A stretch of 64,000 nucleotides of DNA from a virus (Duplodnaviria > Caudoviricetes). Under the pieces are notes generated by a model. The model made no database searches. It was not told where the DNA came from and was given only the letters and a program-made list of their open reading frames with translations. The stretch covers positions 1-64,000 of the IMG/VR virus record IMGVR_UViG_2791355311_000001. One strand, 5' to 3'. The position numbers were made by a program, and so were the translations under genes. Shown one piece after another: positions 26,749-61,735 of the stretch; the first letter of the stretch is position 1, and every line of letters starts with the position of its first letter.

Positions 26749-29656
26749 TGTATTTGAGACAATAAAGCAAACCATATCCAAAGACGACTTAAAAGACTTT
26801 ATAAGCAATGAATATGGTATAGAATTTAAAGCAAACAATGCCAATGCCTTTTGTCCTTTTCACGATCATAATTTCCAAACACCATCACTAGGAGTGAGTG
26901 CCAATAACAACGGAGCATTTTTCCACTGCTTTGCATGCAACACCAGCGGAGATATAACCAAATTTGTAGAACTCAAAGAAAACATATCACCACTACAAGC
27001 AGCCAAAAAAGTATGCGAATATTTTAATATACCTTGTGATATTAACGCACAAGACCTATCCGAAGAAGAAAAAAAAGAAAGAGCCAAAAAATTAGAAGCT
27101 ATAAAAAGACAAAACAAAGAAAGAAGAGCCAAAGACAACGAACAAAAACAAGAACTTATCAAAAAAAATATAATAGCAATAGGCAAAATAGCACCAACTC
27201 TTATAAGAGATTTAGAGATAAATTATTCTAGTATCAAAGACACCCTAGAAGAATCATTTCATTTATATTTTATGCCGATATTTAAAGATATTTCAAAAGA
27301 CCTTTTAGGTTATAGCTTAGAGCATAAAAGCCTAGCTATCATCATAAGAGATAAAAACAACAATCCTATAAATATCAGATATAGACAAAAATTTAAATAC
27401 GATAGCACTCACAAGATGCTAACAAATGAGAGAATGGACGGCAAATGGATAGGACAAGCAAATATGTCATCTTTTCCTTTTCCACTAAGCCTATATGGAA
27501 ATCACACAGACGATAAAGTGATAATCTGCGAAGGTGAAAAAGATGCACTAAATTTATATAGTGTAGGGGTTAGAGCCTTGACCTTGGGGGGAGTAAATAA
27601 TAGCTTTGAGCCTTACAAAGCCTTACTAAAAGACAAGACTGTATATATATGGTTTGATAATGATGAAGCAGGGTATGAAAACGCTATCAAAAAATACCAC
27701 GAATTAAAAGATGTAGCAAAAAATATATATGTAGTTTTATTTTATGCTATTAGCAAAAAGCTACCACCAAAATATGATATTAGCGATTTTATAGGGGATA
27801 ATATACCAAAACTACACGCAAATACTATATATGATTTAATATCATATAGTTGCTTTAAAGTCTCAAATGTGCTTATAGATGAGATATGTGATTATTATCC
27901 AAAGCTTAGCAAAAAGCTAGAAAAATTTAGAGAGATAGAGCCTTTAAAAGAATTCATAGATATAAAAAAAGAAATTATCCAAAAAGATGATAATGGCAAC
28001 TATATAAATATTTTTCCAGTCAAAGGCGAACTAGATGATGAATTTATAGACCGCATCCTAGACAAAACAAAAGCCTTAAAAAAAGAACTAGGCAATGAAA
28101 GATATGATTTATTAAAAGACCTTTATTTACGCAACTTTGTAGTAACAGAAACAGAAACAGAAAATTTTGAGCGATGGACTAAATCTTTTGACGAAGCCTT
28201 TAAGATAAGCAAAACAATGAGATCAAACTATCATCAGACACATATTGTGGATATGGTAGAAAGTCTAAACCAAAGTTTTTACAAACTAGGCTACATCTTA
28301 GGCGAATACAAAGGCAACCTATATGTATGGACAAATAACCACTATATGAAAATAGAAATTAATTCTATGGCTAAATTTATACATAGTTACTGGATGAAAG
28401 CAGCACGGGTTGATTTAAAAAAACAAACAAGACCAAATGTTGATTTAATAGTAGCAGACCTTATAAGCTTAGCTATCAATCTTGATGAAATAAAAGCAAG
28501 ACAACAAAGGCGTGTTATAAATATGTTAAATGGCACTATCTTTATAAGTAAAAATGGCAAGGTTACTTTTAAAGACAAGCACGACCACAAAGACGGCGCT
28601 ACAAATATTCTTAAATTTCATTATGACCCTAATGCAACTTGCCCTAAATGGAACAGATTTTTAAGCCAAGTAATGAGCGATAGTGATGATGAAAAAACAC
28701 TAATGGAATTTATAGGATATTGTTTATTACCAAGCCATGATTATGAAAGCTTTTTATTTTTATATGGCAAAAGTGGAGCAAATGGCAAGAGCGTTATTCT
28801 TGATACACTCAAAAGCTTTTTTGGTGATGATAATATCTCAGCCTTACAACTTCAGCAATTTGAAGGACACCAGCTACACGCCCTAACAAATAAAATAATT
28901 AATATAGGTAGTGAGATAGATAAAAACTCAAGCGACAAAGGACAACTTGCCAACTTAAAAGCAATAGTTTCACCAAAGGATAATTTGCAAATAAACCCTA
29001 AAAATCAAGAGCCTTATTTATTGCTTCCAAATGAAAAACCAAAACTAGCCTTTGCAGGTAATGAAAAGCCTAGACAAGGTTTAGATAATGCAGTCTTTAG
29101 GCGTATGCTTTTAATTAGCTTTGATAAGGAAGTAAAAGACGGACAAAAGATAAGGGGGCTTAGTGATAGATTTGCCGATGAAATGGCAGGAATTTTTAAT
29201 CTAGCCATAGCAGGACTTGCAAGACTTATCACAAATGGCAAATTTACACGTTCACGCAGAATGCAAAACGAACTAGAAGAATACAAAGACGAAGTAAATC
29301 CTATCAGGGCTTTTGTGCGTGATGCAATCATACAAGATGAAAATTATTTTATACCAAGCAAATATCTATATGCGGTATATAAGAATTTCATAGAAGACAA
29401 AGGTGGCACACCGCTTAAAGAAAAGAACTTTTTCAAAGCATTTAGAGATGAATGTTTGATGAATAATATAGTAACATCCTACGAACAAAAACGTTTGCAA
29501 TCTCACTACCTAGGACTTACAAATGATAGACCTTATTGTATCGTAGGCGTTAGAATCAATCTAAATATTGACTTTGATTCAGTAAGTTTTGGCGGACAAC
29601 AGATATTTATTAACACAATGAGTGTTCGAAAAGGAGCAGAACTTGCTTCTATTTAA
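26729..29656 (+). CDS. Primase-helicase (CHC2 Zn finger, TOPRIM, D5-like SF3 helicase)
   Basis: CPFHDH..CFAC, ICEGEKDA, WFDND, GKSGANGKS, RRML. Confidence 0.85.
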   Translation: MGIMMNNVFETIKQTISKDDLKDFISNEYGIEFKANNANAFCPFHDHNFQTPSLGVSANNNGAFFHCFACNTSGDITKFVELKENISPLQAAKKVCEYFNIPCDINAQDLSEEEKKERAKKLEAIKRQNKERRAKDNEQKQELIKKNIIAIGKIAPTLIRDLEINYSSIKDTLEESFHLYFMPIFKDISKDLLGYSLEHKSLAIIIRDKNNNPINIRYRQKFKYDSTHKMLTNERMDGKWIGQANMSSFPFPLSLYGNHTDDKVIICEGEKDALNLYSVGVRALTLGGVNNSFEPYKALLKDKTVYIWFDNDEAGYENAIKKYHELKDVAKNIYVVLFYAISKKLPPKYDISDFIGDNIPKLHANTIYDLISYSCFKVSNVLIDEICDYYPKLSKKLEKFREIEPLKEFIDIKKEIIQKDDNGNYINIFPVKGELDDEFIDRILDKTKALKKELGNERYDLLKDLYLRNFVVTETETENFERWTKSFDEAFKISKTMRSNYHQTHIVDMVESLNQSFYKLGYILGEYKGNLYVWTNNHYMKIEINSMAKFIHSYWMKAARVDLKKQTRPNVDLIVADLISLAINLDEIKARQQRRVINMLNGTIFISKNGKVTFKDKHDHKDGATNILKFHYDPNATCPKWNRFLSQVMSDSDDEKTLMEFIGYCLLPSHDYESFLFLYGKSGANGKSVILDTLKSFFGDDNISALQLQQFEGHQLHALTNKIINIGSEIDKNSSDKGQLANLKAIVSPKDNLQINPKNQEPYLLLPNEKPKLAFAGNEKPRQGLDNAVFRRMLLISFDKEVKDGQKIRGLSDRFADEMAGIFNLAIAGLARLITNGKFTRSRRMQNELEEYKDEVNPIRAFVRDAIIQDENYFIPSKYLYAVYKNFIEDKGGTPLKEKNFFKAFRDECLMNNIVTSYEQKRLQSHYLGLTNDRPYCIVGVRINLNIDFDSVSFGGQQIFINTMSVRKGAELASI

Positions 29657-37843: not shown

Positions 37844-38180
37844 TTACGCGCCTTTCAAAGTGTGGGCAGTCCGTAAAGTTCTTATAGTTTCCACCCCATT
37901 TATTTATAGGGGTTAAACTTTCCCAAAAAGCTCCAATTTCTTTTAAATCATCTTTGTTGGTTAGCCAGTTACCTTCTTTAAATATAAACAAATCAATAGC
38001 ACACTTTATTAAGTGGTTTGAATTGTTTGTTTTGCTTTTTCCTGTTTTTAGATAAATTTCTTGTTGCTCTTTTGTTCTTAAAAGCTCTCCACCTCTTACA
38101 CTGTATCCGTTTGTATGTATATAGTGCAAAAGCTTTTCTACATCTTTCATAAATAATTCTTGTTCTTTTCCTAAACTCAT
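37836..38180 (-). CDS. Endolysin, M15 family peptidase
   Basis: RT.EQQ, S.H....AID, WGG.....D.PHFE. Confidence 0.85.
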   Translation of the reverse strand: MSLGKEQELFMKDVEKLLHYIHTNGYSVRGGELLRTKEQQEIYLKTGKSKTNNSNHLIKCAIDLFIFKEGNWLTNKDDLKEIGAFWESLTPINKWGGNYKNFTDCPHFERRVNG

Positions 38181-39583: not shown

Positions 39584-40084
39584 TTATATCTCTAATTCTG
39601 GTAAACCCTCTAAAAGTTCATCAAGGTTTATTGTGCTAGGGTCTTGATCACCTTTCTCAGCTAAAAACATATACCCAGTTTTCCACACTTTAGACTTCCA
39701 CACACCAAAAGCTTTTCCTTCTTCTTGAAAGTCATTTTCATACCCAGCATAAGAACTGGCACTTAAAATATTATCATATCCGTGTTCTTGTGCTTTTTTA
39801 TCTAAATACTCCCCAGCTCTATCCTTAAATTCTTGTATAAGTTTTTCTTTTGTGTATTCTTGTATACTCTTTGTCTCTATGATTTGAGCTACATATTCAC
39901 CATCTACCTCTTTATACTCTACCGTTTGATAATCAGGGTTAATTTGAACTTCTACAACAGGAAGCAACCCAATCTTATTTAGTTCCTCTTTACTTAGTCT
40001 ATCAAGATAAAATATCCCATCATCTGTAGTTACATAACTATCAAATACAAACCTTTTTTCTTTTTTATCAAAGTATTTTTTCAT
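39584..40084 (-). CDS. Tail fibre assembly/chaperone-like protein
   Basis: Identical to 15808-16320 except the last ~22 aa. Confidence 0.65.
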   Translation of the reverse strand: MKKYFDKKEKRFVFDSYVTTDDGIFYLDRLSKEELNKIGLLPVVEVQINPDYQTVEYKEVDGEYVAQIIETKSIQEYTKEKLIQEFKDRAGEYLDKKAQEHGYDNILSASSYAGYENDFQEEGKAFGVWKSKVWKTGYMFLAEKGDQDPSTINLDELLEGLPELEI

Positions 40085-49266: not shown

Positions 49267-49393
49267 CTTTATACTCCTTAATTGTTTGTATTAAATTTAA
49301 AATGTGTTTTTGCTTTTCTATTGCTAAAATTCTTGTCCTATCATCATTTGATGAGTTGTTAAAAGTTGCTTGTGCTTCATATAGCAAACTCAT
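49253..49393 (-). CDS. 46-aa protein after the portal (start likely MSLLYEAQ)
   Basis: ATG at 49393 with GGAG upstream. Typical small gene between portal and scaffold. Confidence 0.45.
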   Translation of the reverse strand: MSLLYEAQATFNNSSNDDRTRILAIEKQKHILNLIQTIKEYKDDRE

Positions 49394-49577
49394 CAGTTGC
49401 TCCAATATCGCCCGTGTCAGGGGGTTGTAATATTGGGAGATTTCCTTGTTCGCTAATAGCTCCTGCTCCAATATCGCTAGTTCCTGCTCCCTTGTTAATA
49501 ACATCTTGTAAGCTCTCTTCCTTTCCTAGAAATTCATCAGTATTCTTAACACCATACAACGGTAAAAGCATTCTGAT
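49377..49577 (-). pseudogene. 3' fragment (66 codons) of the prophage 2 portal gene
   Basis: IRMLLPLYGVKN... continues in frame from ...ANGKI once 49584-60319 is removed. Confidence 0.88.
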
Positions 49578-49583
49578 AATCTT
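49578..49583. repeat. Left junction core AATCTT
   Basis: Direct repeat of 60314-60319. Confidence 0.88.
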
Positions 49584-49596
49584 GTATGATTCCCCT

Positions 49597-49820
49597 ACAA
49601 CATTTATAAAAGTTCTACATTCTCAAATCATACTTTTATAAATTGTTTAAACAATGTAAAATGATGATAACTCGCTGTTAATAATTCAAGTGCTTTGACA
49701 CTGTTGGGAAGATTTTAGCGATTATCATCGTTTTTGTTACTGATTAAAATCTTAGTAAGTTTAATTAAAACTCTACTGAATACAAGAAAAGTAACAAGAA
49801 CTAAATTAAATTTTACATTC
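49597..49820 (+). ncRNA. IS110 bridge RNA (5' hairpin, target-binding loop, donor-binding loop)
   Basis: Stems 49602-13/49632-43, 49653-62/49810-19, 49663-76/49717-29, 49732-41/49790-99. Guides match donor and target junctions. Confidence 0.85.
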
Positions 49821-49836
49821 AAAAAAGGATTCACAC

Positions 49837-50802
49837 ATGAAAAAATGTTATTTTTGTGGAGTTGATGTATCCAAAAATACTTTGGATTTATGTTTTTTAA
49901 CAAACAACGATAATATAAAACCTAAATATGAAAAATTACCAAACAATAAAGAAGTATTAAAAGCTTATTTTAATTCATTTATCAGTGATGATATACTTGT
50001 AGTATTAGAATATACAAACAATTATCATATAGCATTGCAAGAAGCATTAAGCGAATTAAAAATAAAATACTCAGTACTTAACCCAAACAAAACATCACAC
50101 TTTTTAAAACACCTAACCCATATAAAATCAGATTTAACAGATAGCTATGGACTTGCTTTATATTGTAAAATGTTTAAGTCCTATATAAACCCATCTAAAT
50201 ATAATAAAGAATATATATTAATTAAAAGCTATAACACTACAAGCGAGCTTTTATCAAAGATAACAACTCAATTAAAAAATCTAAAAAAATCACAATCTTT
50301 AACTTATGATAAAGACATAGAAATAATAGTTAAAGATTTAATAAAACATATAGATAGTATAAAAGAAAAACTTAACAATATAGCTTTTGAACTACTAAAG
50401 CAATACATACCACAAACCGAGCAAATTATAAAAGATAGCAAAGGAATAGGTAAAGATTTAGCTTTAAAACTATTCCCACAGCTACATTTTAACAGATTTA
50501 AAAATGCAAAAGAATTTATCTCTTTTATTGGCTTATCGCCTAGAATTTATGAATCGGGTACAAGTGTTAAAAAAACTAAAAAAATAAATAAAATTGGAAG
50601 CAGCACAATAAGAAAAGCTTTATTTATGTCTGCTTTATCTTGTATCAGATTTAACGATAAATTTAAAACAAGATATAACAGGTTAATAGATAGTGGAAAA
50701 AATAAAAAAGTTGCTATTGTTGCAGTAATGTGTGCGATAGTCCGATTTTTAAAAAGTTATTTTAAAAATGAAACAAATACCTATAAATTTAACACAGTTT
50801 AA
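49837..50802 (+). CDS. IS110-family (bridge) recombinase
   Basis: GVDVSK, LEYT, KSDLTDS (DEDD RuvC-like). GIG, FIGLSP...ESG (catalytic Ser region), KVAIVAVM. 321 aa, intact. Confidence 0.92.
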   Translation: MKKCYFCGVDVSKNTLDLCFLTNNDNIKPKYEKLPNNKEVLKAYFNSFISDDILVVLEYTNNYHIALQEALSELKIKYSVLNPNKTSHFLKHLTHIKSDLTDSYGLALYCKMFKSYINPSKYNKEYILIKSYNTTSELLSKITTQLKNLKKSQSLTYDKDIEIIVKDLIKHIDSIKEKLNNIAFELLKQYIPQTEQIIKDSKGIGKDLALKLFPQLHFNRFKNAKEFISFIGLSPRIYESGTSVKKTKKINKIGSSTIRKALFMSALSCIRFNDKFKTRYNRLIDSGKNKKVAIVAVMCAIVRFLKSYFKNETNTYKFNTV

Positions 50803-50962
50803 AATTTTAAAATCTGTGCTTAATAACTTTAATAACAAAAGGAGTATTACAAGACAAGATATATTAAACACTACAGACATATCAAAAGATAATTTAAGTA
50901 AAACAATTAAAAATGGTTATTTGTTAGAAAACAAATTAAACAAACATTTAAACAGTTTATAA
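50768..50962 (+). CDS. Small winged-HTH-like protein
   Basis: LTQFKILK...ITRQDILNTTDISKDNLSKTIK. Confidence 0.5.
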   Translation: MKQIPINLTQFKILKSVLNNFNNKRSITRQDILNTTDISKDNLSKTIKNGYLLENKLNKHLNSL

Positions 50963-50974
50963 AAGGATGACACA

Positions 50975-51415
50975 ATGGCAAAAGCTACAGAAGCTTTATT
51001 GAACACAGAAAAAGAGCAAGAGATAAAAAATATATGGAATGCTTTAAATCAGAATAACGACTTATTCGAACAAAAGATTAAAGTAACAGGTTTAAAACTT
51101 CAAGAAGGTAAGGAAAAAATAGATAAAGATGGTAACATCTTAACAGATGAGTTTGGAGAGCCGCAAAAATGGGATAACACTTATCGTTTAAGCTATGTAT
51201 CTTTAAATAGTGGTGGCGAACACTCAACAAGAATAACACAAGAACAATATTTAAATTTAAAACTTGATGAAGTATACATCGCTTCTGGCTCTATAAAATA
51301 CGTATTATACAAAGACGCATATAACACAACCCCGACCGTGGTATTTGAAAAATTTACCCCAGCTAGCGAGTTGTTTGTAACGGCAATGTTAAAACTTGAA
51401 GGTTTAAAAAAGTAG
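50975..51415 (+). CDS. Putative single-stranded DNA-binding protein
   Basis: Beta-rich 146 aa with OB-like pattern, upstream of the RCR Rep. Function inferred from context. Confidence 0.45.
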   Translation: MAKATEALLNTEKEQEIKNIWNALNQNNDLFEQKIKVTGLKLQEGKEKIDKDGNILTDEFGEPQKWDNTYRLSYVSLNSGGEHSTRITQEQYLNLKLDEVYIASGSIKYVLYKDAYNTTPTVVFEKFTPASELFVTAMLKLEGLKK

Positions 51416-51520
51416 CGCAAGCCCTGATTTTATAGGGCTTTAAACAAAAGTAAGTGCCTAGACTATCAGTACCTCACACCGTTACAAGCCCCTTTAGATA
51501 AAAAAAGAAAGGACAAAAAA

Positions 51521-51739
51521 ATGAAAACAACAATTTTTAATTCAGATATTGAAAACATATCATCTTTAGCCAATAATAATAAACATACAATGTCTATAGC
51601 CAAAGATATAGCAAATGTTATAAATGAAATAGATAGTTCTGTTTTTGTTAATAATTTAATCTTTCTCTTAAATGATGAGCAAAAAGAGCATTTTTTATAT
51701 CACTTAAAACACTCTATCATAGAAAGTAAAACAAAATGA
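51521..51739 (+). CDS. Hypothetical protein
   Basis: SD AAAGGA; ATGA overlap with rep. Confidence 0.55.
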   Translation: MKTTIFNSDIENISSLANNNKHTMSIAKDIANVINEIDSSVFVNNLIFLLNDEQKEHFLYHLKHSIIESKTK

Positions 51740-53184
51740 TTTTTGATAGCCTAAATTTTAACATTGTTCACCAAGGTATTGATACTTTAGTTTTAGGTAT
51801 TCGTTGCAATGATGAAGAATACTACAAAAATGAGTATTCTGAGTTTATATCAAAAATTTACGATTTAAAAAATCAAGCCCAATTAATAAATACTTACGGT
51901 GAAAAATATATCCTTGATGATTTAGGCTCATCATACGGTAATTTTAAAGTGTCATCTAAAGGCTTAGGTAATTATTTCGGTTTCTTTGAAAACGATGATA
52001 TATTTTGCTTAGTAGGTGATACAAGCTTTAAAAATAAACAAATGTATCATTTAAAAATACAATTTAGAAGTATATTTTTACTTAAATACGGTCATAAAGA
52101 ATGTTATAACCGTGTAAAAGCATTTTTAAATGATATATTCAAAGATAAATTTGATGTTGAAATCTCAAGGGTTGATATTTGTACCGATGTTGCTGGTATA
52201 AAATACACACCGCAGGATTTTTTAAAATTTAGAAGTTTAAAAAGAACAACAAATTACACTCATTCAACCTATAAGCATGATAGCACACTTATAAAAGATG
52301 ATGAAACAGAAACAAATCTTATAAACTTAGAACAAATGACAATTAACAATTTTATGCAATATAACAGATTTGAAGGTATCGCATTTGGCAAATCTCCATG
52401 TATGTTTAGAATATATGACAAAGTTAATCAGGTCATTAAAAAACGTATAAGTAATTTAATATTTACTAAGTGGGAGCTTTACGGATATGATATAAACTCT
52501 AAAAGCAATGTTTATCGCCATGAAATTGAACTTGGTCGCCCCTTTGTTAAAAAACTTATGGGCGATAATGTAACTGATGAAATTTCTTTTTTATTTGATA
52601 ATTTAGGGAAATTTTGGGCTTATGGTTTAAAAATTTGTAAGTGGTATGATTTAACAGATGATGAAGTTAAGAGATTAACAGAAAGCAACATTAAATCAGA
52701 TAGCAAGCGACTTATATATTTTCGTTGTGAAGCTGACACAAACCGCTTGAATTTTTGGGATATGATTAATAAATTTGATGAAGAAAACAACGAAGCTTTA
52801 TATCTTCATAAGTTTATTAATACAAGAGATATTAAAAAAGTAAAGATAGCTTTTAAATCTTTTATATCTTCAGTTTATAGTAATTTAGGTTCATTTGATG
52901 ATAATTTCACCTATGTAATCAATGAAGTTAAAAAAGACCTTGCTATGCAAAAAATATCACTTCATGAATACGGTTTATCTAAAATGTGCGGTAGCTTTAA
53001 TAAAAACGAGCAAATTATTAAAGGTGAAAAATTAGATGTTATAAATCCATTATATCCATCACTTTATCGCTCACTTGATGACTTATTACAAGCTTTACAG
53101 GATATTAGAAATGATGATTATAAAAAAGATATTGAAAAATCTTTAACGGTTTTAAAAAATGATGGATACATTTATGAATATTAA
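51736..53184 (+). CDS. Rolling-circle replication initiator, Rep_trans-like
   Basis: GIDTL, ISRVDICTD, FG.....FRIYDK (catalytic Tyr), RHEIEL. Confidence 0.8.
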   Translation: MIFDSLNFNIVHQGIDTLVLGIRCNDEEYYKNEYSEFISKIYDLKNQAQLINTYGEKYILDDLGSSYGNFKVSSKGLGNYFGFFENDDIFCLVGDTSFKNKQMYHLKIQFRSIFLLKYGHKECYNRVKAFLNDIFKDKFDVEISRVDICTDVAGIKYTPQDFLKFRSLKRTTNYTHSTYKHDSTLIKDDETETNLINLEQMTINNFMQYNRFEGIAFGKSPCMFRIYDKVNQVIKKRISNLIFTKWELYGYDINSKSNVYRHEIELGRPFVKKLMGDNVTDEISFLFDNLGKFWAYGLKICKWYDLTDDEVKRLTESNIKSDSKRLIYFRCEADTNRLNFWDMINKFDEENNEALYLHKFINTRDIKKVKIAFKSFISSVYSNLGSFDDNFTYVINEVKKDLAMQKISLHEYGLSKMCGSFNKNEQIIKGEKLDVINPLYPSLYRSLDDLLQALQDIRNDDYKKDIEKSLTVLKNDGYIYEY

Positions 53185-53476
53185 CAATAATTTATACATA
53201 GCATTAGTTGGTTATCTAATTGAAGAAAATAAAGAAAATAAATATATTTGTATTGATTTAAGGCATTATAGTGTTATAAAATCTTTTGCAAAGCAACATG
53301 GATTTATTAAATATAATAGCTTTGTAGGGAGTTTAAAACGTTATCGTGAATTACAAGAAAAATTAGCAAAAGATTTTGTTATTGCTCCTATTCGTAAGTT
53401 TTTAAGTATTAAAAATTATACCTTTAAAATTAGGGGCGATTATCTATTTATAGTTAAACAATTTACATTATTTTAG
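53159..53476 (+). CDS. Hypothetical protein
   Basis: ORF overlapping the end of rep. Confidence 0.5.
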   Translation: MMDTFMNINNNLYIALVGYLIEENKENKYICIDLRHYSVIKSFAKQHGFIKYNSFVGSLKRYRELQEKLAKDFVIAPIRKFLSIKNYTFKIRGDYLFIVKQFTLF

Positions 53477-53491
53477 AAAGGTTTTTTTATT

Positions 53492-53869
53492 TTGATAAAA
53501 ATTAATAGTATTTCTAGTTTTTTAATTAAATTTTTAAAAGATTATTATCCATATAAAAAAAATATTTCTTTTAAAATTGAAGAAATTAATAGACATTTTT
53601 TAATTATTGATTTTTATTTTAATGAAAGCTATGTAAAAAATGATTTTAGTAATTATATAACTTTTACACATTATTTTATTTTAGATGATAGTTATCTTGT
53701 CTTTCATTTTTTTATTTTTAAAAAAGCAAAAATTCAATCATCATTTTTACAAAATTTTATAATTAATCTTAAAAATGATTTTATTTTTTCTTTCAATTTA
53801 AGAGATTATGTTTTTAATTATGATGAAAATTTAACAAAATACAAAGGAGTTATTTATGCAAATAAATAA
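53492..53869 (+). CDS. Hypothetical protein (very AT-rich)
   Basis: 125-aa ORF with TTG start that fills the operon gap. Confidence 0.4.
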   Translation: MIKINSISSFLIKFLKDYYPYKKNISFKIEEINRHFLIIDFYFNESYVKNDFSNYITFTHYFILDDSYLVFHFFIFKKAKIQSSFLQNFIINLKNDFIFSFNLRDYVFNYDENLTKYKGVIYANK

Positions 53870-54182
53870 AGAAGATATCGCAAAATTTAGCGATAAGGCA
53901 AAAGGTGTTTTCGATGGACTTTCAACAATTACAAGCGTATTTTTTCCACAAATTACTGCGCCAGTTACTGCTGTTAGTAAGGTATTTTCTAAAATATCAG
54001 AACTTGATGACACAGAAGCAGAAAACATCGCAGGTTTATCTGCTACAGCTTTTAAACTTGATGAAATGATTAAACAAGTTGAGAAAGGCGAAAAGATAGA
54101 CATTGAACACTTAAAAGAACTTTCTGAAAACATTAAAAGTATAGATAGCTCTTTAGATAAATTTTACAAGGTTATTTCATGA
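53856..54182 (+). CDS. Hypothetical helical protein, possibly virion
   Basis: SD AAGGAG; amphipathic helices. Confidence 0.6.
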   Translation: MQINKEDIAKFSDKAKGVFDGLSTITSVFFPQITAPVTAVSKVFSKISELDDTEAENIAGLSATAFKLDEMIKQVEKGEKIDIEHLKELSENIKSIDSSLDKFYKVIS

Positions 54183-54844
54183 TACAATCTGTTACAAATC
54201 TGAATCAATTTTTTGAAGAGCCTGCGGATGGTTATTATCTTTTTAATGGAAATATCTATAAAAAAATTGGAGAGATTTCATTATATATTGATAATAATAC
54301 TTATGAAAATATATCTATGCTTAACACGAAATATCGAATAATATTTGTTAAGACTTCTCTTATTACCGCAGTTGATTTAAAAGACAATAAGGACTTTATT
54401 GAATCAACTTTTTTTGATTCTGAGGGTTTTCCTTCTCGTGTCCCTGCGATTTCTTCTTCTGGCTTATCTTTGCCTTTGCTGACTCCGGTAAAATTAAAAG
54501 GTTTTGATTTTTGGTTTTGTATAGCATCTTCTTTTATGCTATACATTGACAATAATACAGAAATATTATGTTATGTTCCAGAAACTTCTTTATTAGATTG
54601 TTTTGGTAAACTTTATAATCTTTCTGTTGCTTGTCCTGCTTCGCTAATTACTGAATATAAAACTGGTGAATTATTTCCTTATTGGTTCTTTTTTAATATT
54701 TATTCTTCTTTTGGTTTGCCATTTAAAAAAGACCATTTCTTAAAAGTTCTTGCCGATAAGAAAGATTTTTTGAGTTTTGAAGAATTTAAATCTTATGATG
54801 AAGAATATTATTCTCTTTATTCTTGGGCTGATTATTTTGAATGA
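54179..54844 (+). CDS. Hypothetical protein
   Basis: ATGA overlap; aromatic, beta-rich. Confidence 0.55.
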   Translation: MIQSVTNLNQFFEEPADGYYLFNGNIYKKIGEISLYIDNNTYENISMLNTKYRIIFVKTSLITAVDLKDNKDFIESTFFDSEGFPSRVPAISSSGLSLPLLTPVKLKGFDFWFCIASSFMLYIDNNTEILCYVPETSLLDCFGKLYNLSVACPASLITEYKTGELFPYWFFFNIYSSFGLPFKKDHFLKVLADKKDFLSFEEFKSYDEEYYSLYSWADYFE

Positions 54845-54902
54845 TTTTATATTTTTTATACAAAATGTTATAATCTATAAAAAAAAGAAAGGATAAAAAA
54901 AA

Positions 54903-56039
54903 ATGCCTCTTCCTGTTGTTGGTATTATTGCTAATCTTCTCCGAACCGGTGCTATATCTGCTTTTGATATTGCTAGTGCTGGTGCTGGTTCTTATGCTTT
55001 AACAAAAACTTTAAAAGATACTGATTTAAGTTCTCCACAAAACACTGGTGATTATATAAATCCTTTAGGTTTTTCAATTGCTCGTAATATTGTTGAGCGT
55101 ATAAATAATTATTCTCGTTCAAGTTCCTCAACAACTGATTTTAATCTTTCAGAAGCTCCTTCAATACCAAAGCCTGAAGATTATATTAACAAGCTCAGGT
55201 CAATTCATGATAAGGATTATACTATTCCCGCACCATCAGCTCCGCAAACTCCTAAGAACAATTTATCTTCTTCTGCTTCGTTTGCTAGTGGTAGCTCTAA
55301 TATTAATGCTGGTAATTCAACAAATCTTATCAGTGCTATTAATTCACAAAATGCTATACTTGCGGAAATTGCTTCAGCATTAAATTCTTTTGTAGCTTTA
55401 CAAGCAACAAAATCTCTTAATATTGCAGTGCCTACACAACAAGCAAGCAAAAAAGGTGGTTTTACACAAACTATATCTACACCTTTACCAAATTTTAAAC
55501 CAAAACCTGAGCTTAACTCAAAATCACTTGAAAAAAGTTTGGATTTAATAGCAAATTTATATAAAAAGTCTCTTGAAAATCCTAGTAAATCTGTAGATTT
55601 AACAGAAGTTACCAAAGCTTTAAATAATATAGCTAAAATAAAACCTAGCATAAAAATGACAATGCCAAAAGACTTATCTATAGCTTTCCCTGAATCAATG
55701 GCTGTAACTTTACCAGCTGATTACGTTGCAAATCAGACAGCTATTAAGGAAGCTTTATCTGGAACCTTTGAAATACACAAAGAACAAGCCGAATACATGA
55801 AAACACCAGCAACAGTTAAAGACCTCGATGGTAACACCATCGCTAAAGCTACTCCAAGAGAGATGTCGCTTACATACGAAGCAACTAGAGCAAGAACTGC
55901 AACAGATGAAAACAATTTTGAACTTGATGAAAATGATATAAATGCTTTATATCCTGCTTTACCGGATATATCTCAATTATTTAAATTTAAACTTGTCGGC
56001 GAAGTTACAAAGGATTATTTAAATGAAACAAATAAATAA
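54903..56039 (+). CDS. Putative DNA-pilot/minor virion protein
   Basis: Gly/Ala-rich hydrophobic N-terminus (MPLPVVGII...AGAGSYAL), Ser/Pro linkers, strong T at third codon positions. Confidence 0.5.
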   Translation: MPLPVVGIIANLLRTGAISAFDIASAGAGSYALTKTLKDTDLSSPQNTGDYINPLGFSIARNIVERINNYSRSSSSTTDFNLSEAPSIPKPEDYINKLRSIHDKDYTIPAPSAPQTPKNNLSSSASFASGSSNINAGNSTNLISAINSQNAILAEIASALNSFVALQATKSLNIAVPTQQASKKGGFTQTISTPLPNFKPKPELNSKSLEKSLDLIANLYKKSLENPSKSVDLTEVTKALNNIAKIKPSIKMTMPKDLSIAFPESMAVTLPADYVANQTAIKEALSGTFEIHKEQAEYMKTPATVKDLDGNTIAKATPREMSLTYEATRARTATDENNFELDENDINALYPALPDISQLFKFKLVGEVTKDYLNETNK

Positions 56040-56220
56040 AAATGATTTAAAAAATAATGATGTCAATAACAACGATGATAGTAATATATTGATTGATATT
56101 ATCGTTATTCTTGTTATTATTGGTATTGCTTACTATTTTATAAGCTCTTTCAAACTTGTTGGAGATGTTTCCCGTGAATATTTGGATGAGCAAAAGGTTA
56201 TAAATAATGTCAGAAACTAA
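56023..56220 (+). CDS. Small single-TM protein
   Basis: ILIDIIVILVIIGIAYYFI. Confidence 0.55.
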   Translation: MKQINKNDLKNNDVNNNDDSNILIDIIVILVIIGIAYYFISSFKLVGDVSREYLDEQKVINNVRN

Positions 56221-56968
56221 GCAAAGTAACACAGCTCGCATTATTGGTCTTGGTGTTGATGAAATGTTTGAAGATTTAACATATTCGGTTGCTTATAACG
56301 AAGTTCTAACAAGACTTAAAAATAGTGGTATGCCTGATGGAATTTTAAACGACGCTATTAATAGTGGTATTAGTATAATGTTTTCGGCTGCTTTAATGAC
56401 TTATATCCAAAAACAAGAAGCTATTATCCATAAAATTGTTGGTATTGCTGGCTCTTTGCTTATTGCTACTCTTACGCCTGTTCGTGCCGGTGCTAAAAAT
56501 CTTTTTAAAAAATTTTCCAAAGGTCGTAAGCTTGGCATGTTTAGTAAAATTTTTGGCGATTCGGATGCTAATAATATATCTTATGGACAAGTTATTGCAA
56601 CGAGTGCTAATTCTGCTTTTAATGCTCATCAATCTTCAAGTAATGTTTTTCAAGCTGGCAGTGTTGCAATGCAACAACGGGAGCATATTCTAAACACTAA
56701 AAATCATCAGATGAATTATGCTAAAGCTAAAGTTGATAGCATAAATCAAACATTATTATTTAAACTATTTACATCTAAATTTACAAGTCAAGACAAAGAA
56801 ATTTTACGTAAAATTACTGGCTCTTCTGAGATAAACATAGAAAATATTAACAAAGTTGCTTCTTTTATGTTTGTAACAGACAGCAACGGCGATATTACAG
56901 GTCTAGCTGAACAATTTACAACTATGTTAAATGGTTTGGGGTATTTTCATAATAAGGGTAAAAAATGA
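56207..56968 (+). CDS. Putative membrane-associated virion protein
   Basis: Two hydrophobic segments followed by a basic patch. Confidence 0.55.
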   Translation: MSETKQSNTARIIGLGVDEMFEDLTYSVAYNEVLTRLKNSGMPDGILNDAINSGISIMFSAALMTYIQKQEAIIHKIVGIAGSLLIATLTPVRAGAKNLFKKFSKGRKLGMFSKIFGDSDANNISYGQVIATSANSAFNAHQSSSNVFQAGSVAMQQREHILNTKNHQMNYAKAKVDSINQTLLFKLFTSKFTSQDKEILRKITGSSEINIENINKVASFMFVTDSNGDITGLAEQFTTMLNGLGYFHNKGKK

Positions 56969-57126
56969 GTATGAGTGAACAAGAATGTAAAGAAGCTGTT
57001 GAAAAAGAAATTTTATTGTTAAGTACAATTAGTAAAAATATTGAAATATTAAATTCCAATATCCAAAAACTTTTACTTGCACTTACTGGTGAAACTGGCG
57101 ATTCTACAAAAAGTCAAGGTAATTAA
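56965..57126 (+). CDS. 53-aa coiled-coil peptide MSMSEQECKE... (not in the ORF track)
   Basis: ATGA overlap; fills the gap exactly. Confidence 0.5.
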   Translation: MSMSEQECKEAVEKEILLLSTISKNIEILNSNIQKLLLALTGETGDSTKSQGN

Positions 57127-57128
57127 AC

Positions 57129-57857
57129 ATGATTGCTCCTTTAGTTTGTTGTTGTAAAAAAGAAAAAAGGGAATTTTATCTTTCTGTTTTTCAACTTATA
57201 ATTGAACTTCATGCAAGTTCAACTTATTATGATGGTGATTTAGCAAATTTGTTTGGTATTCACGTATTTCCAATATTTCCTCTAGAATTTCAAATTAATC
57301 ACAATCTTCCTAATTTCTTTTTTCGTAAAGATATTTCTTTTCCTGAAAATCATTTACCCGGATATGACTATGAAGCACCTTTATTTTTGACTGGGTTTTT
57401 TAAAAATGCTCCTGAAACTTTTTTTTATGCTGATGATTACAGCGAAAAGCCTATTCGTATTCCTGATCCTAATTTAAGTGTATCTTCAATTAACGAAATT
57501 TACTTGGCTATATTAAATTATTATGATAAAAAATCTTTTGATATAAACAACTATACCCCCGATGAATTTTCTTTTATTTTTACAAAAAAACATTCTTTTA
57601 ACGGTTTTGATTTGTTTGGCGGCGATACAGTAAAAACAAAGCACTATAATTATAATTCTTTTTCAAGTTGTTTTAATAATCTTAAATCTCTTTATGCTGA
57701 TTTTATTTCTTCGCTTGATTTTGCTAAAAAATCAAATAATTTTTATGAAGATTTTACAGGTATTCATATAGGTAAAGAATTTACTGAAATTAGTCCTTAC
57801 TCTTTTTCTCACATTTCCAGTATTGAATTATCTATAGCACTACCAATAATAAAATAA
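57129..57857 (+). CDS. Hypothetical protein, possibly receptor-binding
   Basis: 242 aa, aromatic-rich, N-terminal CCC. Confidence 0.5.
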   Translation: MIAPLVCCCKKEKREFYLSVFQLIIELHASSTYYDGDLANLFGIHVFPIFPLEFQINHNLPNFFFRKDISFPENHLPGYDYEAPLFLTGFFKNAPETFFYADDYSEKPIRIPDPNLSVSSINEIYLAILNYYDKKSFDINNYTPDEFSFIFTKKHSFNGFDLFGGDTVKTKHYNYNSFSSCFNNLKSLYADFISSLDFAKKSNNFYEDFTGIHIGKEFTEISPYSFSHISSIELSIALPIIK

Positions 57858-57872
57858 AAAAGGAGTTAATCA

Positions 57873-58229
57873 ATGCCCGTATATAAAGTAACCCAGCAAC
57901 AAGGAAATCGTGTTATAACTTCAACATACGAAGCTAAAAGCTCTACATCTTTATTACAATTTTTACAAGAAGTATCAACCGCTAAAGTTAAGTATATATA
58001 TCGTGTAGAGTATGAAGATGAAGAAACGACACCGCCAAACGATGACTTTAATTATCACAAACAATTTAAAGCATTTGCAAAAAATAGCAATAATGCTTCT
58101 AAACAAGTTTTAATACATAATGTTAAAACAACTAAGAATGAGCAAGAATTAACAAATGCAATAATTACACATCTTAGTGTAGGAGAACAAGCAATTAAAT
58201 CTGTGGCTTGTTCTTTGTTTATGCACTAA
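57873..58229 (+). CDS. ~115-aa paralogue A, candidate structural protein
   Basis: SD AAGGAG. Pattern shared with 58967-59320 and 59342-59680. Confidence 0.6.
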   Translation: MPVYKVTQQQGNRVITSTYEAKSSTSLLQFLQEVSTAKVKYIYRVEYEDEETTPPNDDFNYHKQFKAFAKNSNNASKQVLIHNVKTTKNEQELTNAIITHLSVGEQAIKSVACSLFMH

Positions 58230-58282
58230 ATTTTTAACCTTTCTTATAATCTAACCGCTTTAATTTTGAGCCTTGTCTATTT

Positions 58283-58328
58283 AAGCCTTGCGGTCGCTCT
58301 GCGACCTGCTGGCTTGATCCTTTTTTTT
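58283..58328 (+). terminator. GC-rich hairpin followed by a T-run
   Basis: AAGCC..GGTCGC-TCT-GCGACC..GGCTT then T8. Confidence 0.5.
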
Positions 58329-58560
58329 CTCATTCTCTTACTTTTTCTTACTCTCTTTTTGCCATTTTCTATCTTCTTGAAAAACTATAATCACATCTTA
58401 TTAAATTCTTTATAAAAATACTCCCCAAACTCTTGTATTTTTTATTTTTATATTATTTTGCTTACTTGTTTTGTTTTTCTTTGATTCTATAGCTTGTTTG
58501 ATATCTTTATACAGCTTTTTAACTTAACCCTTATATTTTTTTATTTATTTCCTAATAAAT

Positions 58561-58706
58561 AATATTTTTCATTCTTGCATAAATACCCAATATTATTTTA
58601 TTTTTGCTTGTCAAGACTGCGAAGCACACCGCTAGGTGCTTGGTCTTTACAAGCTTTCAAAAATAAAATAATAAACTCCAATTTATGCCAAGAATGATAA
58701 AATATT
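58561..58706. repeat. 146-bp imperfect inverted repeat (candidate sso or packaging signal)
   Basis: Includes a 16-bp perfect arm TATTATTTTATTTTTG/CAAAAATAAAATAATA, GCTTGTCAAGAC/GTCTTTACAAGC and AAGCAC/GTGCTT. Confidence 0.8.
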
Positions 58707-58966
58707 TCTTATATCTGTTTGTTTGTCTTTTTTTTTAATCAACTAAAATTTTGTAATAAAAACATATCCATCTGTGTTAATTTCATAATTTTACATTTTT
58801 AAAAGTTGCTTAAAAACTTTTAAACGCCCCTTTATAACGTTTAATAATCATGTGTTGCTTCAACTTTTTATATTTATCTTTATAATTTGAATTGTTTTAA
58901 AAACGTTTTTTAACAAATATTTTAAGTCTATATGACACAAATAAAACAAGAAAAAAAAGGAAACAC

Positions 58967-59320
58967 ATGCTAAAACAATACATCCAAGGTTTAAATCCTA
59001 AGACATTGTCTTTTAGTGATAATAGTGATGAGGATTCTCTGTTACCACTTCTTGCTGGAAAAATTGAAAAATATGAGCAAACTGCTACTGGTGGAGCTGT
59101 ATTAAATGAACTTCCCACTACATTAAATCGTAAAGAATTTATCGTTTCTAAAGATAGTCCTACTGGTAGAATTTCTTCAATAGTTAGAATACCGCACGTT
59201 AAAGAAACTTTTTACTTTAACGAGCTTAATGCTTCTGTTAAAGGTAAATTTGATTCATCTTTTACTAGCGATGTTAAATGTGATGAAGTTAAATTACGTT
59301 TCGACTCTCTAGCAAAATAA
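58967..59320 (+). CDS. ~115-aa paralogue B, candidate structural protein
   Basis: RIPHVK.T and VKCDEV motifs. Confidence 0.6.
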   Translation: MLKQYIQGLNPKTLSFSDNSDEDSLLPLLAGKIEKYEQTATGGAVLNELPTTLNRKEFIVSKDSPTGRISSIVRIPHVKETFYFNELNASVKGKFDSSFTSDVKCDEVKLRFDSLAK

Positions 59321-59341
59321 TTAAGATAAAAGGATAAAAAA

Positions 59342-59680
59342 ATGGCTAAAACATTAATAAGAAACAAGATAGCTAGTAAAACTTTTGGTATGGCTTTGCC
59401 TGCTAGTGCTGAAACTGCAAAAGCTTTTGCTGATGTTGCTCTTGAGGGTGAATATGCAATATTTGAAAGAAAAAGTGAGCAAGGTAATGATACCGAAGCC
59501 CAAGTTATAGAATATGTTGTTACTGGTAAGAGTGAGGCAGGTTTTAAAACAACATTTAGTTTTTATGCAAATGCTAACAAAACAGAAGTTGATATTAAAA
59601 CTGCTCTTTTAGAAAAAACTTTCAACGGTGTTAAGTTTGATGAAATTTATATAATTTCGGCTAAATATGTTAAAGGTTAA
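59342..59680 (+). CDS. ~115-aa paralogue C, candidate major structural protein
   Basis: Strong SD AAAGGA, VKFDEI motif, T3-biased codons. Confidence 0.6.
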   Translation: MAKTLIRNKIASKTFGMALPASAETAKAFADVALEGEYAIFERKSEQGNDTEAQVIEYVVTGKSEAGFKTTFSFYANANKTEVDIKTALLEKTFNGVKFDEIYIISAKYVKG

Positions 59681-59691
59681 TAAACATTAAT

Positions 59692-59922
59692 ATGCAATCT
59701 TTAACAAATGAATATTTAGAGTTAGTGCTAACTGCACTAGCTCTTTTCTTATCTGGTCTCAATTGGTTTATATCTCAAAAATTATCAAGTTTTTCTTATA
59801 GACTTGATAAGATAGAAACATCTTATACTGACACTTATCAGATAAAAGCAGATATACAGCTATTAAAAGAAAAAATAGATTTCATTATTGAGATGTGTAA
59901 AGATAATAATAAAAAGGTTTAA
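59692..59922 (+). CDS. Putative holin (one TM plus coiled coil)
   Basis: LELVLTALALFLSGLNWFI, directly upstream of the endolysin. Confidence 0.55.
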   Translation: MQSLTNEYLELVLTALALFLSGLNWFISQKLSSFSYRLDKIETSYTDTYQIKADIQLLKEKIDFIIEMCKDNNKKV

Positions 59923-59924
59923 CT

Positions 59925-60266
59925 ATGCCGTTAGGAAAAGAACAAGAAGATTTCACTAAAGATTTAAATAAATTACTTACATATTTACATAATAATAACT
60001 ATAATGTAAGATGTGGTGAACTATTTAGAACACAAGAACAACAAGAAATTTACTATCAAAGAAAACTAACTAAAACAAAAAATAGCTATCATACAAAAAA
60101 ATTAGCTATTGATTTATTTATATTCAAAAACGATACATGGTTAAAAACCAAAGAGCAATTACAACCAATAGGGGATTATTGGGAGAGCTTAAACAACATA
60201 AACAAATGGGGTGGTAATTATAACAGTTTTATAGACTGTGTACATTTTGAAAGAAGAGCAAAATAA
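59925..60266 (+). CDS. Endolysin, M15 family peptidase
   Basis: S.H....AID and WGG...D..HFE. 70/113 identities to 37836-38180 by manual count. Confidence 0.85.
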   Translation: MPLGKEQEDFTKDLNKLLTYLHNNNYNVRCGELFRTQEQQEIYYQRKLTKTKNSYHTKKLAIDLFIFKNDTWLKTKEQLQPIGDYWESLNNINKWGGNYNSFIDCVHFERRAK

Positions 60267-60297
60267 GCTAAAATAAAAAACTACAATTTAAATACTC

Positions 60298-60319
60298 TTG
60301 ACATTTATCTTAAAATCTT
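60298..60319 (+). promoter_or_regulatory. Right end: -35 box TTGACA plus junction core AATCTT
   Basis: Joins TATGAT (49585-49590) at 17-bp spacing only in the circular form. Confidence 0.85.
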
Positions 60320-61735
60320 CCCATTTGCTTTTTTAAGTTGCATTGCACCTTCCATATCTTGAAGTTGCAAACAAACGCCAAGTTGATTACCAATGGCTCC
60401 CATTGCTTCCATTAGCCCCTGTTTTTGCACTTCTTTATTTAAAGCACCAATTCCCGTATTTAAACTAACTGCAAAAGATGGTATTTCATCTCTGCTATAT
60501 CCCGCAAAGAAATCAGCGTTGCCATATTTCCAAACCAATTTTGCAAGTCTTTCAAATATAGGCTCAAAAAATGTTTCGTTAAAAGTTCTAATATAACCTT
60601 GTATCCTAACGCTACCTTCATTCGCCATAATGCTAGCCATCGTTGCAGTTTCTTTTCTGTATGTACTTGCTCCATTTTGTTGAGGGCTTACACCACTTGC
60701 TTCGCTCATTTCTTGGTCTATTAAACTTACTGCTAGTTGTGCCACATTTAGATTAGGCGCAGGTAGCACTTGTAAGGCTGTTGGCTCATTTGTAAATATT
60801 GGCAAGCCTATCGTTTCTATTTGCTCCCTTGTAACATTTGCACTTGTGTTAACTACTATCTTTGGCTTTAATGCCATATTGATACCATCTATAATTGAGT
60901 TTCTTGTAATGTTTATCTCGTCTTGTAAAGGTAAAATACTAGCAAGAGGTGGCTCACCATACACACAAACAAAGTCTTGCTCGTTAAAATCTCTAACCTG
61001 TGGTGTCATATACCCAAAGATAAAGGGTTGTCCATCTTTTAGCTTAATGCCTTCTCTTAAAAGTGTTTCGTTAAATAAGGTTGAAACTTCCCATTCCCCA
61101 TTGATTTGTTCGTAAATATCATATACTTCAAAACGCTCATAAGGCTTAAATTCAATATCATCAAGGCTTAATAACACTTGTTCTTTTTTAAATATCTTTC
61201 TTTTTGCAAGTGCTAACAAATCATCAGCCGTTAAGATTAGTTTATTGACTATATAACGCACATCTCTTGGGCTTTTAGCATTTGGGTCAAAGTATATCTC
61301 ATCTAATTCTATCTCTTCAATAATAGGCATATCACCAGACCAATATACCTTAGCCACGCTTGTTCCTAAGAACGGTATTTTTTGAAAGATTGGTGCAAAT
61401 GTGTTATAAAGCTTTAGCATATCGGTGTAAATATCCAAAGCCTCTTGCCATTTGTCTATAACTTCTTGCTTAGAATTGATATAAGTTTGAAGTTTCGCAA
61501 AAGTATCATTGTTAAAATACGTTTCGCTTAAACTATCACTTATACGCTTAGCCTTTGCGTTTATCTTTGGTATATAAATGCGTGATTTGTTCCTTTTTGC
61601 AAGTGATGTTATCTGCTCTTGTTCTAGATTAAGCAAGTAAGCACTATTTAATTTATCAAAGCTAGGCTTATACTTTTCAAAGCCGTCCTTCGCATTTGAT
61701 AACAACTCTTGCAAATAAACTACATCTTTTCCCAT
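60314..61735 (-). pseudogene. 5' part (474 codons) of the prophage 2 portal gene, interrupted
   Basis: KSRIYIP, FDPNA, CVYGE, LQDEIN.TRN. Stops two codons into the inserted element. Confidence 0.88.

Follow-up and report, generated by a model that had tools for sequence, protein, structure and literature searches.

A probable IS621-like bridge RNA in the left end of a 10.7-kb replicon inserted in a prophage portal gene

Results

A 10,736-bp element splits a prophage portal gene

We analyzed a 64,000-nucleotide stretch of viral DNA (Duplodnaviria; Caudoviricetes), positions 1 to 64,000 of IMG/VR record IMGVR_UViG_2791355311_000001, which is called the window below and belongs to a 1.76-Mb Campylobacter genome. 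Within it, a prophage portal gene is interrupted by a mobile unit of 10,736 bp (49583-60318), which has CT on both sides (49581-82 and 60317-18) and is oriented opposite to the portal gene. Between the left end of this unit and a gene for an IS110-family recombinase lies a structured segment (49597-49820) that we consider, with high confidence, to be an IS621-like bridge RNA. Together with the DEDD/Ser recombinase, it would integrate and excise the whole 10,736-bp replicon at the CT core. The locus has the following features:

49377-49582, minus strand: C-terminal piece of the portal gene, in frame after removal of 49583-60318 (scripted joining)
49574-49582, plus strand: left half of the target, TGATAAT, with the left copy of the CT core (49581-82); joined to 60319 onward, it restores the portal frame
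49583-49590, plus strand: left end of the element, TGTATGAT, in which TATGAT (49585-90) is the predicted -10 box of a junction promoter; start conserved in homologues
49597-49820, plus strand: bridge RNA with predicted ends, made up of a 5' stem-loop (49599-49647), a closing stem (49653-62/49810-19), a target-binding unit (49663-49729) and a donor-binding unit (49730-49801)
49679-49686, plus strand: left target guide (LTG), TAATAATT, on the 5' strand of the target loop
49705-49714, plus strand: right target guide (RTG), TGGGAAGATT, with the invariant AGATT(T), on the 3' strand of the target loop
49744-49753, plus strand: left donor guide (LDG), TTAAAATCTT, conserved in the family
49780-49787, plus strand: right donor guide (RDG), ATACAAGA
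49837-50802, plus strand: IS110-family recombinase, 321 aa, with Pfam and structure-template matches; candidate catalytic residues D10, E58, D99, D102 and S240-G241
60298-60318, plus strand: right end of the element, with a -35 box TTGACA (60298-303), the left-donor sequence and the right copy of the CT core (60317-18)
60319-60323, plus strand: right half of the target, TCCCA
60305-61735, minus strand: SU10-type portal gene, N-terminal 476 codons, interrupted, with its stop codon inside the element (PF23899, E 4.9e-16)

The truncated portal open reading frame (ORF) breaks off at position 529 of the 593-position PF23899 profile, and in-silico deletion of 49583-60318 yields a portal frame of 540 aa. 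Portal homologues turned up in 13 of the 100 other genomes searched from the genus; those that are complete are open frames of 505-559 aa. The joined 540-aa portal is colinear with these intact portals across the break (...AN.KI...LLPLYG...). The restored frame and its colinearity therefore set the insert at 10,736 bp.

Relatives of the element share its ends and its length. Recombinase homologues (58-64% identity) were found in 21 of the 100 other Campylobacter genomes, among them C. concisus, C. showae, C. ureolyticus and uncultured forms. The left end starts with T(T/G)TATGAT, mostly TGTATGAT, in all homologues. We examined 15 kb downstream in 20 of the relative loci and found the right end, TTGAC(n)TC-TTAAAATCT, 9.6-10.6 kb from the left end in 12/12 cases located by the end word alone. 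TTGAC precedes the right end in all 12 of these far ends, though the search pattern did not require it. A relaxed pattern recovered three more right ends. Of the other loci, one has been reduced by deletion to 2 kb, and the rest extend past the end of their contigs. The deletion derivative (L052 in genome G052, 2,046 bp) keeps both ends, the bridge RNA, the recombinase, a 64-aa ORF and the endolysin, and has lost the other cargo.

Filled and empty sites can be compared directly in C. concisus. The anchor of the insertion site was found in 27 of 30 loci, of which 22 are empty (CTTCATAAA-TT-TAAGAAGC) and the other 5 contain the element. The left junction of the filled loci reads ...AAA-TT-TGTATGAT; the right junction, read in L075, is ...AAAAT-CT-TAAGAAGC. 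Insertion thus adds the element plus 2 nt. In this lineage (L087-L113) a TT core in the target is combined with a CT core in the donor, and each junction retains its own core. The LDG of the lineage is one A longer than the right end it reads, which implies a bulged pairing.

The ends of a related element also occur joined in nature. One metagenome contig of 4,157 bp carries, in order, cargo genes, the endolysin, TTGACATTTATCTTAAAATCT, TGTATGAT, the bridge RNA and the start of the recombinase gene, so that the right and left ends are joined with the junction promoter arrangement intact. The joined-end pattern was not found in the viral contig collection that we searched.

We considered whether the family targets phage genes and found no support for this idea: of 12 complete relatives examined, a single one is inserted in a long ORF (733 aa), and the rest occupy short ORFs or intergenic positions. 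One IMG/VR relative locus adjoins a prophage and lies outside any phage gene.

Four guides match the two breakpoints

The initial annotation had read four guides from the RNA, and each of its matches was reproduced. The LDG is identical to 60310-19 at the right end (10/10), the RDG is the reverse complement of 49580-87 (8/8), and the RTG is the reverse complement of AATCTTCCCA at 60314-23 (10/10). The LTG matches the left flank TGATAATC (49574-81) at 6 of 8 positions, or at 7 of 8 if a bottom-strand U-G wobble is counted. The proposed common CT core does lie within each guide pairing, and the strand logic fits the LTG/RTG/LDG/RDG layout defined for IS621 in the accessible part of the published description (PMC11208160).

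Taken singly, the guide words are weak. TTAAAATCTT occurs 3 times against 1.8 expected, and AATCTTCCCA, with 2 occurrences against 0.08 expected, is the sole guide word beyond chance by itself. TCTTGTAT occurs 21 times in the window, compared with 3.9 times in shuffles; we discarded this excess as a signal because it is largely explained by a duplicated prophage segment and by the high frequency of the word genome-wide (9.4 per 64 kb). The case therefore rests on position, at both breakpoints of one interrupted gene, and on the comparative data.

Other sequences in the genome resemble the target or its junctions. In the canonical register the ideal target would be TTAATAATT-CT-TCCCA; the genome has no copy of it with up to one mismatch over the 14-nt core, and the 16-mer is found only with two mismatches. 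A 12-nt match to the left junction (TCTTGTATGATT) at 29326-29337 of the window (minus strand) may be due to chance. Separately, the window holds identical contexts about 24 kb apart, at 16067-16101 and 39831-39865, which indicate either segment duplication or a pair of related prophages.

The leader is predicted to fold as two looped units inside a closing stem

Both stems of the initial annotation are present: the arms of the 5' hairpin (49602-13/49632-43) are perfectly complementary over 12 bp, and those of the closing stem (49653-62/49810-19) over 10 bp. In the minimum free energy (MFE) structure from RNAfold, the 5' hairpin and the closing stem appear as predicted, with the latter around two stem/internal-loop/stem units. 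The MFE of 49597-49820 is -54.8 kcal/mol, compared with -29.9 +/- 3.7 for 200 shuffles (z -6.73), none of which folded as well.

The further claim that all four guides are unpaired needs qualification. In the ensemble the guides are mostly open, with mean probabilities of being unpaired of 0.67 (LTG), 0.58 (RTG), 0.75 (LDG) and 0.93 (RDG), compared with 0.00-0.05 for the stems. In the MFE structure, parts of three guides are paired: 4 nt of the RTG (TGGG) and the last 2 nt of the LTG pair weakly, and the last 2 nt of the LDG fall in the inner stem. The extra pairing of the RTG (alignment pairs 116-119/140-143) is not kept in homologues.

Across relatives, stems covary and target guides follow the insertion flanks

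Comparison across homologues agrees with a guide function: stems change in a compensatory manner, and the target-loop guides vary with the insertion flanks. In the RNAs upstream of the homologous genes the donor loop is constant (GATTAAAAATCTTAGTG...CACTGAATACAAGAAAG) and the target loop is variable. When 16 sequences were folded singly, 13 formed the closing stem and the two units, 2 formed the units without the closing stem, and 1 folded otherwise. RNAalifold on a plain MAFFT alignment predicted both units, with compensatory changes in 11 of 22 pairs.

We also built a covariance model from 16 sequences and searched 500 kb with it. All 30 matches lie in loci retrieved through the recombinase or its Rep neighbour or in a decayed remnant, with none elsewhere; 10 of the matched loci lay outside the model seed. 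The distance from the left end to the match is 45-83 nt, which places the matches in the left-end leader, and the match in the window covers 49652-49813 (83 bits, E 5e-16). In the model alignment, 93.0% of the cells in 25 distinct rows are paired and 26 of 39 pairs have changed on both sides; such a model-fitted alignment leans towards structure, and the MAFFT-based counts agree, more weakly. Sliding the partners by 1-3 columns lowered these values to 36-51% and 8-17 pairs, and 0 of 500 shuffles reached them.

The two loops behave differently. The donor loop is conserved together with the element ends in the 30 matches, and the RDG reads ATACAAGA in 29 of them and ATATAAGA in the decayed remnant. 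In the target loop, the longest exact run between LTG and left flank averages 8.9 nt over 23 distinct cognate pairs, with 18 reaching 9-11 nt; in 484 non-cognate pairs the mean is 4.2 and 1% reach 8. For the RTG and the right flank (17 pairs), the variable 5-6 nt beyond the core match by at least 5 in 12 pairs, compared with a non-cognate mean of 2.7. At least 12 different target-loop sequences each match their own insertion site, with the donor loop fixed. The target loop's 3' strand has an invariant AGATTT, complementary to the donor AAATCT and not to the C. concisus target AAATT, which would fit the 'handshake' idea as it is presented in the accessible part of PMC11208158.

The decayed remnant (G000:C1:573092-573566, outside the window; match at L002:1551-1709) has a bridge RNA-like match of 51 bits with different target-loop bases. 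Its IS110 gene is reduced to the first 101 codons, at 51% identity.

The recombinase belongs to the IS110 family

The recombinase matches PF01548 (E 4.4e-13) and PF02371 (E 3.4e-20), both above the cut-offs, and is matched over its full length by ISCro4 (9t56, E 1.3e-19) and IS621 (8wt6, E 9.7e-17). Its candidate catalytic residues sit in the motifs of IS621 D11, E60, D102, D105, S241 and G242, as these are given in the available portion of PMC11208158; the equivalence is based on the ISCro4 alignment and motif position, not on structure. This is the sole PF01548 gene in the genome, and Pfam and PHROGs scans of the element returned no second recombinase. The bridge RNA lies upstream of the recombinase gene, and the covariance model has no match downstream of the gene in the window. 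We therefore rejected an assignment to the IS1111 subgroup with a seekRNA, which requires an RNA downstream, in the right end.

Words resembling the right end also occur near the recombinase stop codon. One, TTAAAATCTG (9/10), lies at 50807-50816, just past the stop and without a -35 box, and in several relatives the 3' end of the recombinase gene contains TTAAAATCT. Words of this kind are possible sites for partial, recombinase-only circles.

In the integrated state, a promoter scan shows no promoter-like site just upstream of the RNA. By sequence, the joined ends would place TTGACA (60298-303) ahead of TATGAT (49585-90) with a 17-nt spacer, made up of 15 nt of the right end plus TG. A role for a promoter reconstituted across joined ends is taken from IS621, as described in the part of PMC11208160 that is accessible. 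Such a junction promoter would drive the RNA and probably the recombinase. The RNA would be transcribed with approximately the ends given, bind the protein and direct catalysis, and this copy may be active.

The cargo is a conserved replicon with lysis genes

The remainder of the element is occupied by co-oriented genes:

50768-60266, plus strand: cargo, about 17 ORFs in one orientation whose content and synteny are conserved in relatives
51736-53184, plus strand: predicted rolling-circle replication initiator with a Rep_trans fold, 482 aa (AlphaFold2 model, pLDDT 88.9; Foldseek)
59692-60266, plus strand: lysis pair, a 76-aa protein with a hydrophobic N-terminal segment (putatively holin-like) and an M15 peptidase endolysin (59925-60266)

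The cargo genes of relatives are syntenic and share 30-68% identity, similar to the recombinase, which indicates that the unit diverged as a whole.

The 482-aa protein is, judging from its structural model, a rolling-circle initiator of the Rep_trans fold. The model used a 53-sequence alignment from an exhaustive HMMER search; a 9-sequence alignment gave a pLDDT of only 42.9. Its top six Foldseek matches in the PDB include 4cwc, 4cwe and 4cij, which are RepDE/RepSTK1 initiators of the Rep_trans type (E 6e-8 to 2e-7; target TM 0.52-0.57). The best viral fold matches, in BFVD, are Reps labelled Inoviridae, and the ESM Atlas agrees on Rep. Sequence searches gave no match for Rep in Pfam (the window protein and 8 homologues), PHROGs or PDB profiles, and Pfam on 10 of 138 distant HMMER matches, tblastn against INPHARED phages and a scan of viral contigs were negative or uninformative.

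The endolysin matches phrog_465 (E 2.5e-12) and PF13539 (E 3.9e-9). The surrounding prophage has an M15 endolysin of its own at 37845-38180 (minus strand), 62.5% identical to that of the element. In PHROGs and Pfam searches of the other cargo ORFs, no capsid, portal, terminase or ATPase was recognized and the endolysin alone was identified, so 'virus' is at most a provisional label for the element. An ESM Atlas search with the 253-aa cargo protein gave no usable match. No Walker A motif is present in any frame of the element, which argues against a Zot-like protein. We accordingly rejected an Inoviridae-like provirus: the Zot/pI-type ATPase is absent, a holin-like/endolysin pair is present, and the Rep fold alone is similar. 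The sole long stretch of the element without an ORF of at least 60 aa, 58230-58966, is a candidate replication origin or packaging region.

Sister replicons use either an IS110 gene or a tyrosine integrase

Relatives of Rep occur in 39 of 301 Campylobacterales genomes, representing 20 of 89 genera, and we examined ten strong Rep loci from other genera. In five of them the same cargo core is preceded by an IS110 gene (34-38% identity), and in two of these five the bridge RNA model matches directly upstream of that gene. The other five (L150-L154) have a tyrosine integrase (PF00589) in place of the IS110 gene and no bridge RNA model match. The same Rep is present in all five tyrosine-integrase loci; the cargo genes o253, o118, o117 and o112 occur together in L150 only, L151 and L153 have one each of these four, and none was found in L152 or L154. 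This alternation indicates that the recombinase and its RNA fill the integrase slot of a pre-existing replicon family.

Three of the tyrosine-integrase loci (L150, L152 and L153), in three different genomes, adjoin ribBA (DHBP synthase / GTP cyclohydrolase II), suggesting that these sister elements have a fixed attachment site there. In another locus (L156, G222:C15:66089-86000) the cargo is tandemly repeated with a period of 9,067 bp, and a single IS110 gene lies ahead of the first copy.

Discussion

We propose that the bridge RNA and the recombinase encoded downstream of it recombine the element's joined ends with its target. The donor would be the circular junction TTAAAAT-CT-TGTAT (TTAAAATCTTGTAT), read by the donor loop, and the target would be TGATAAT-CT-TCCCA, read by the target loop, with exchange at the CT core. 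Recombinase and RNA would thereby serve as the integration and excision module of a rolling-circle replicon with a lysis pair. Excision would create a TTGACA-17 nt-TATGAT promoter across the junction, which would drive the RNA and probably the recombinase. The RNA is a further member of the known bridge RNA class; its proposed use as the integration module of a coherent 10.7-kb replicon, with a natural series of retargeted guides, would be new.

Several observations weigh against this proposal, at least for the copy in the window. The element is present only once in the genome, which may argue against activity in this strain. Beyond the window, the 14-nt target TGATAATCTTCCCA recurs without mismatch inside an unrelated 792-aa ORF (G000:C1:1281734-1281747, minus strand), where it is unoccupied. 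The LTG shares an exact run of no more than 5 nt with its flank, which is one of the shortest such runs in the family, and to fit at all it needs a register shifted by 1 nt from that of most relatives; with this weak match and slip, the portal insertion looks half-matched by sequence. The metagenome contig with joined ends could be a circle or a tandem dimer, and it comes from a C. concisus-type relative, not from this copy. An Rfam search with the RNA returned only two chance-level matches (E 0.5-0.6), although Rfam may hold no bridge RNA family. To these must be added the lean of the model-fitted alignment noted above.

The alternative that survives best is that the RNA and enzyme are real but that an off-target insertion at a half-matched site left this copy stranded as an inactive relic that cannot excise. 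The poor LTG match, the single copy and the empty identical target are consistent with it, as are the lack of a promoter-like site upstream in the integrated state and the decay of the relative at G000 573092-573566. However, every ORF, each end and the four guides are undamaged in this copy, which also keeps its catalytic residues. Moreover, half-matched sites are reported as excision substrates in the accessible part of a recent preprint (bioRxiv 10.64898/2026.08.31.748434). We therefore regard a stranded relic as unlikely, while treating it as a serious alternative.

It is far less probable that a short IS110 insertion sequence of about 1.2 kb happens to lie beside an unrelated 9.5-kb island, with the RNA serving only the short element and the match at 60310-19 due to chance. 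The right-end-like TTAAAATCTG after the recombinase stop and the unremarkable frequency of TTAAAATCTT in the window would be expected in that case, and published large IS110 loci often move in part, according to the available text of bioRxiv 10.64898/2026.08.14.744561. Yet the inner site lacks the TTGAC of a -35 box, the RTG matches DNA past 60318 and not past 50816, and only removal of the whole 10.7 kb restores the portal frame. In the relatives, cargo and recombinase have diverged in step and are syntenic, the whole unit separates filled from empty sites, and the junction contig links the far right end to the left end. The short-element explanation is thus already largely refuted. Least credible of all is a structured leader without guide function, either a cis-regulatory 5' UTR acting on translation or stability or an antisense target: the leader does lie directly upstream of the ATG, with a Shine-Dalgarno-like AAGGA right after the closing stem, but a UTR would not predict internal-loop bases that track insertion flanks while the stems merely compensate, nor a second loop that copies the two ends of the element.

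Beyond the proposed RNA-guided integration, a wider scenario is possible, although we would not yet call it probable. Lysis-capable rolling-circle replicons of the Campylobacterales, which may represent a virus without a tail and with a virion type not yet described, may have swapped a tyrosine integrase for a bridge recombinase and its RNA. About 15 RNA bases would then set the attachment site, which would drift by point mutation between lineages, and an element in a portal gene could act as a reversible switch or as a hyperparasite of the prophage. If true, this would be natural RNA-programmed lysogeny.

Why does this element matter? The bridge RNA class was described in 2024, and the novelty lies in what is moved. 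The cargo is unusual in being a conserved 10.5-kb replicon with Rep and lysis genes, for which the recombinase and RNA are the only integration module across species. The natural retargeting series is the experiment of engineers done by evolution, and its guide/target pairs include a TT target core facing a CT donor core, sites that are half-matched and a donor guide with a bulge. Bridge recombinases appear to move payloads of about 10 kb as whole units in nature. In the host, the insertion puts the portal gene of a prophage out of action, an effect that precise excision would reverse.

Comparison with known systems

Our literature search found no paper on this Campylobacter element or on a bridge RNA for a phage-like replicon, although supplementary tables, including those of Hu et al., may hold such a record. 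Bridge RNAs and their layout are established, as set out in the accessible parts of PMC11208160 and PMC11208158. The element resembles IS621 and ISCro4 of the IS110 subgroup in its DEDD RuvC-like domain and Tnp domain with an SG loop, in the position of the RNA in the left end upstream of the gene, and in the 5' stem-loop followed by target and donor loops. It also shares the LTG/RTG/LDG/RDG logic, the CT core, and the division of a promoter into a -35 box in the right end and a -10 box in the left end. Unlike theirs, the RNA here is about 224 nt rather than 177 nt long, and an extra closing stem encloses both loops. The element measures 10.7 kb with about 17 cargo genes, compared with 1.3 kb, the protein similarity is distant (E 1e-17 to 1e-19), and the C. 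concisus lineage of this family pairs a TT target core with a CT donor core.

Large cargo-bearing IS110 loci were recently described by Hu et al. (2026; bioRxiv 10.64898/2026.08.14.744561). According to the part of that preprint that is accessible, these are progressive accretions, mostly of plasmid DNA with resistance genes; whole-unit mobility drops with size and movement is often of partial segments, and the circle of a 9.2-kb locus was recovered. Their loci and ours share an IS110 gene and bridge RNA bounding multi-kb cargo and half-matched configurations of guide and site. In contrast to those accretions, the cargo here is one coherent replicon that has co-diverged with its recombinase across species and genera.

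The filamentous phages Nf/MDA of Neisseria and phiOH16 and Zuza8/27 of Thermus have an IS110-family transposase as their presumed integrase (PMC7058167, PMC11437467). As in the present element, one end of their small rolling-circle provirus carries an IS110-family gene, and their integration sites are thought to contain a CT motif. They differ in being inoviruses, and the accessible sections of these two papers describe no bridge RNA for them. The element here has a holin-like/endolysin pair and has neither a Zot-like protein nor a recognizable coat protein.

Finally, the HE-PICI elements, which are helper-embedded satellites, provide a parallel for the insertion site. As reported in the available text of PMC10111431, these small integrative elements split prophage late genes, including the portal gene, and precise excision restores the gene. 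The element described here also splits a prophage portal gene. However, HE-PICIs rely on tyrosine integrases and point the same way as the late gene, whereas this element has an RNA-guided recombinase and lies opposite to the portal gene, and its relatives reside mostly outside phage genes.

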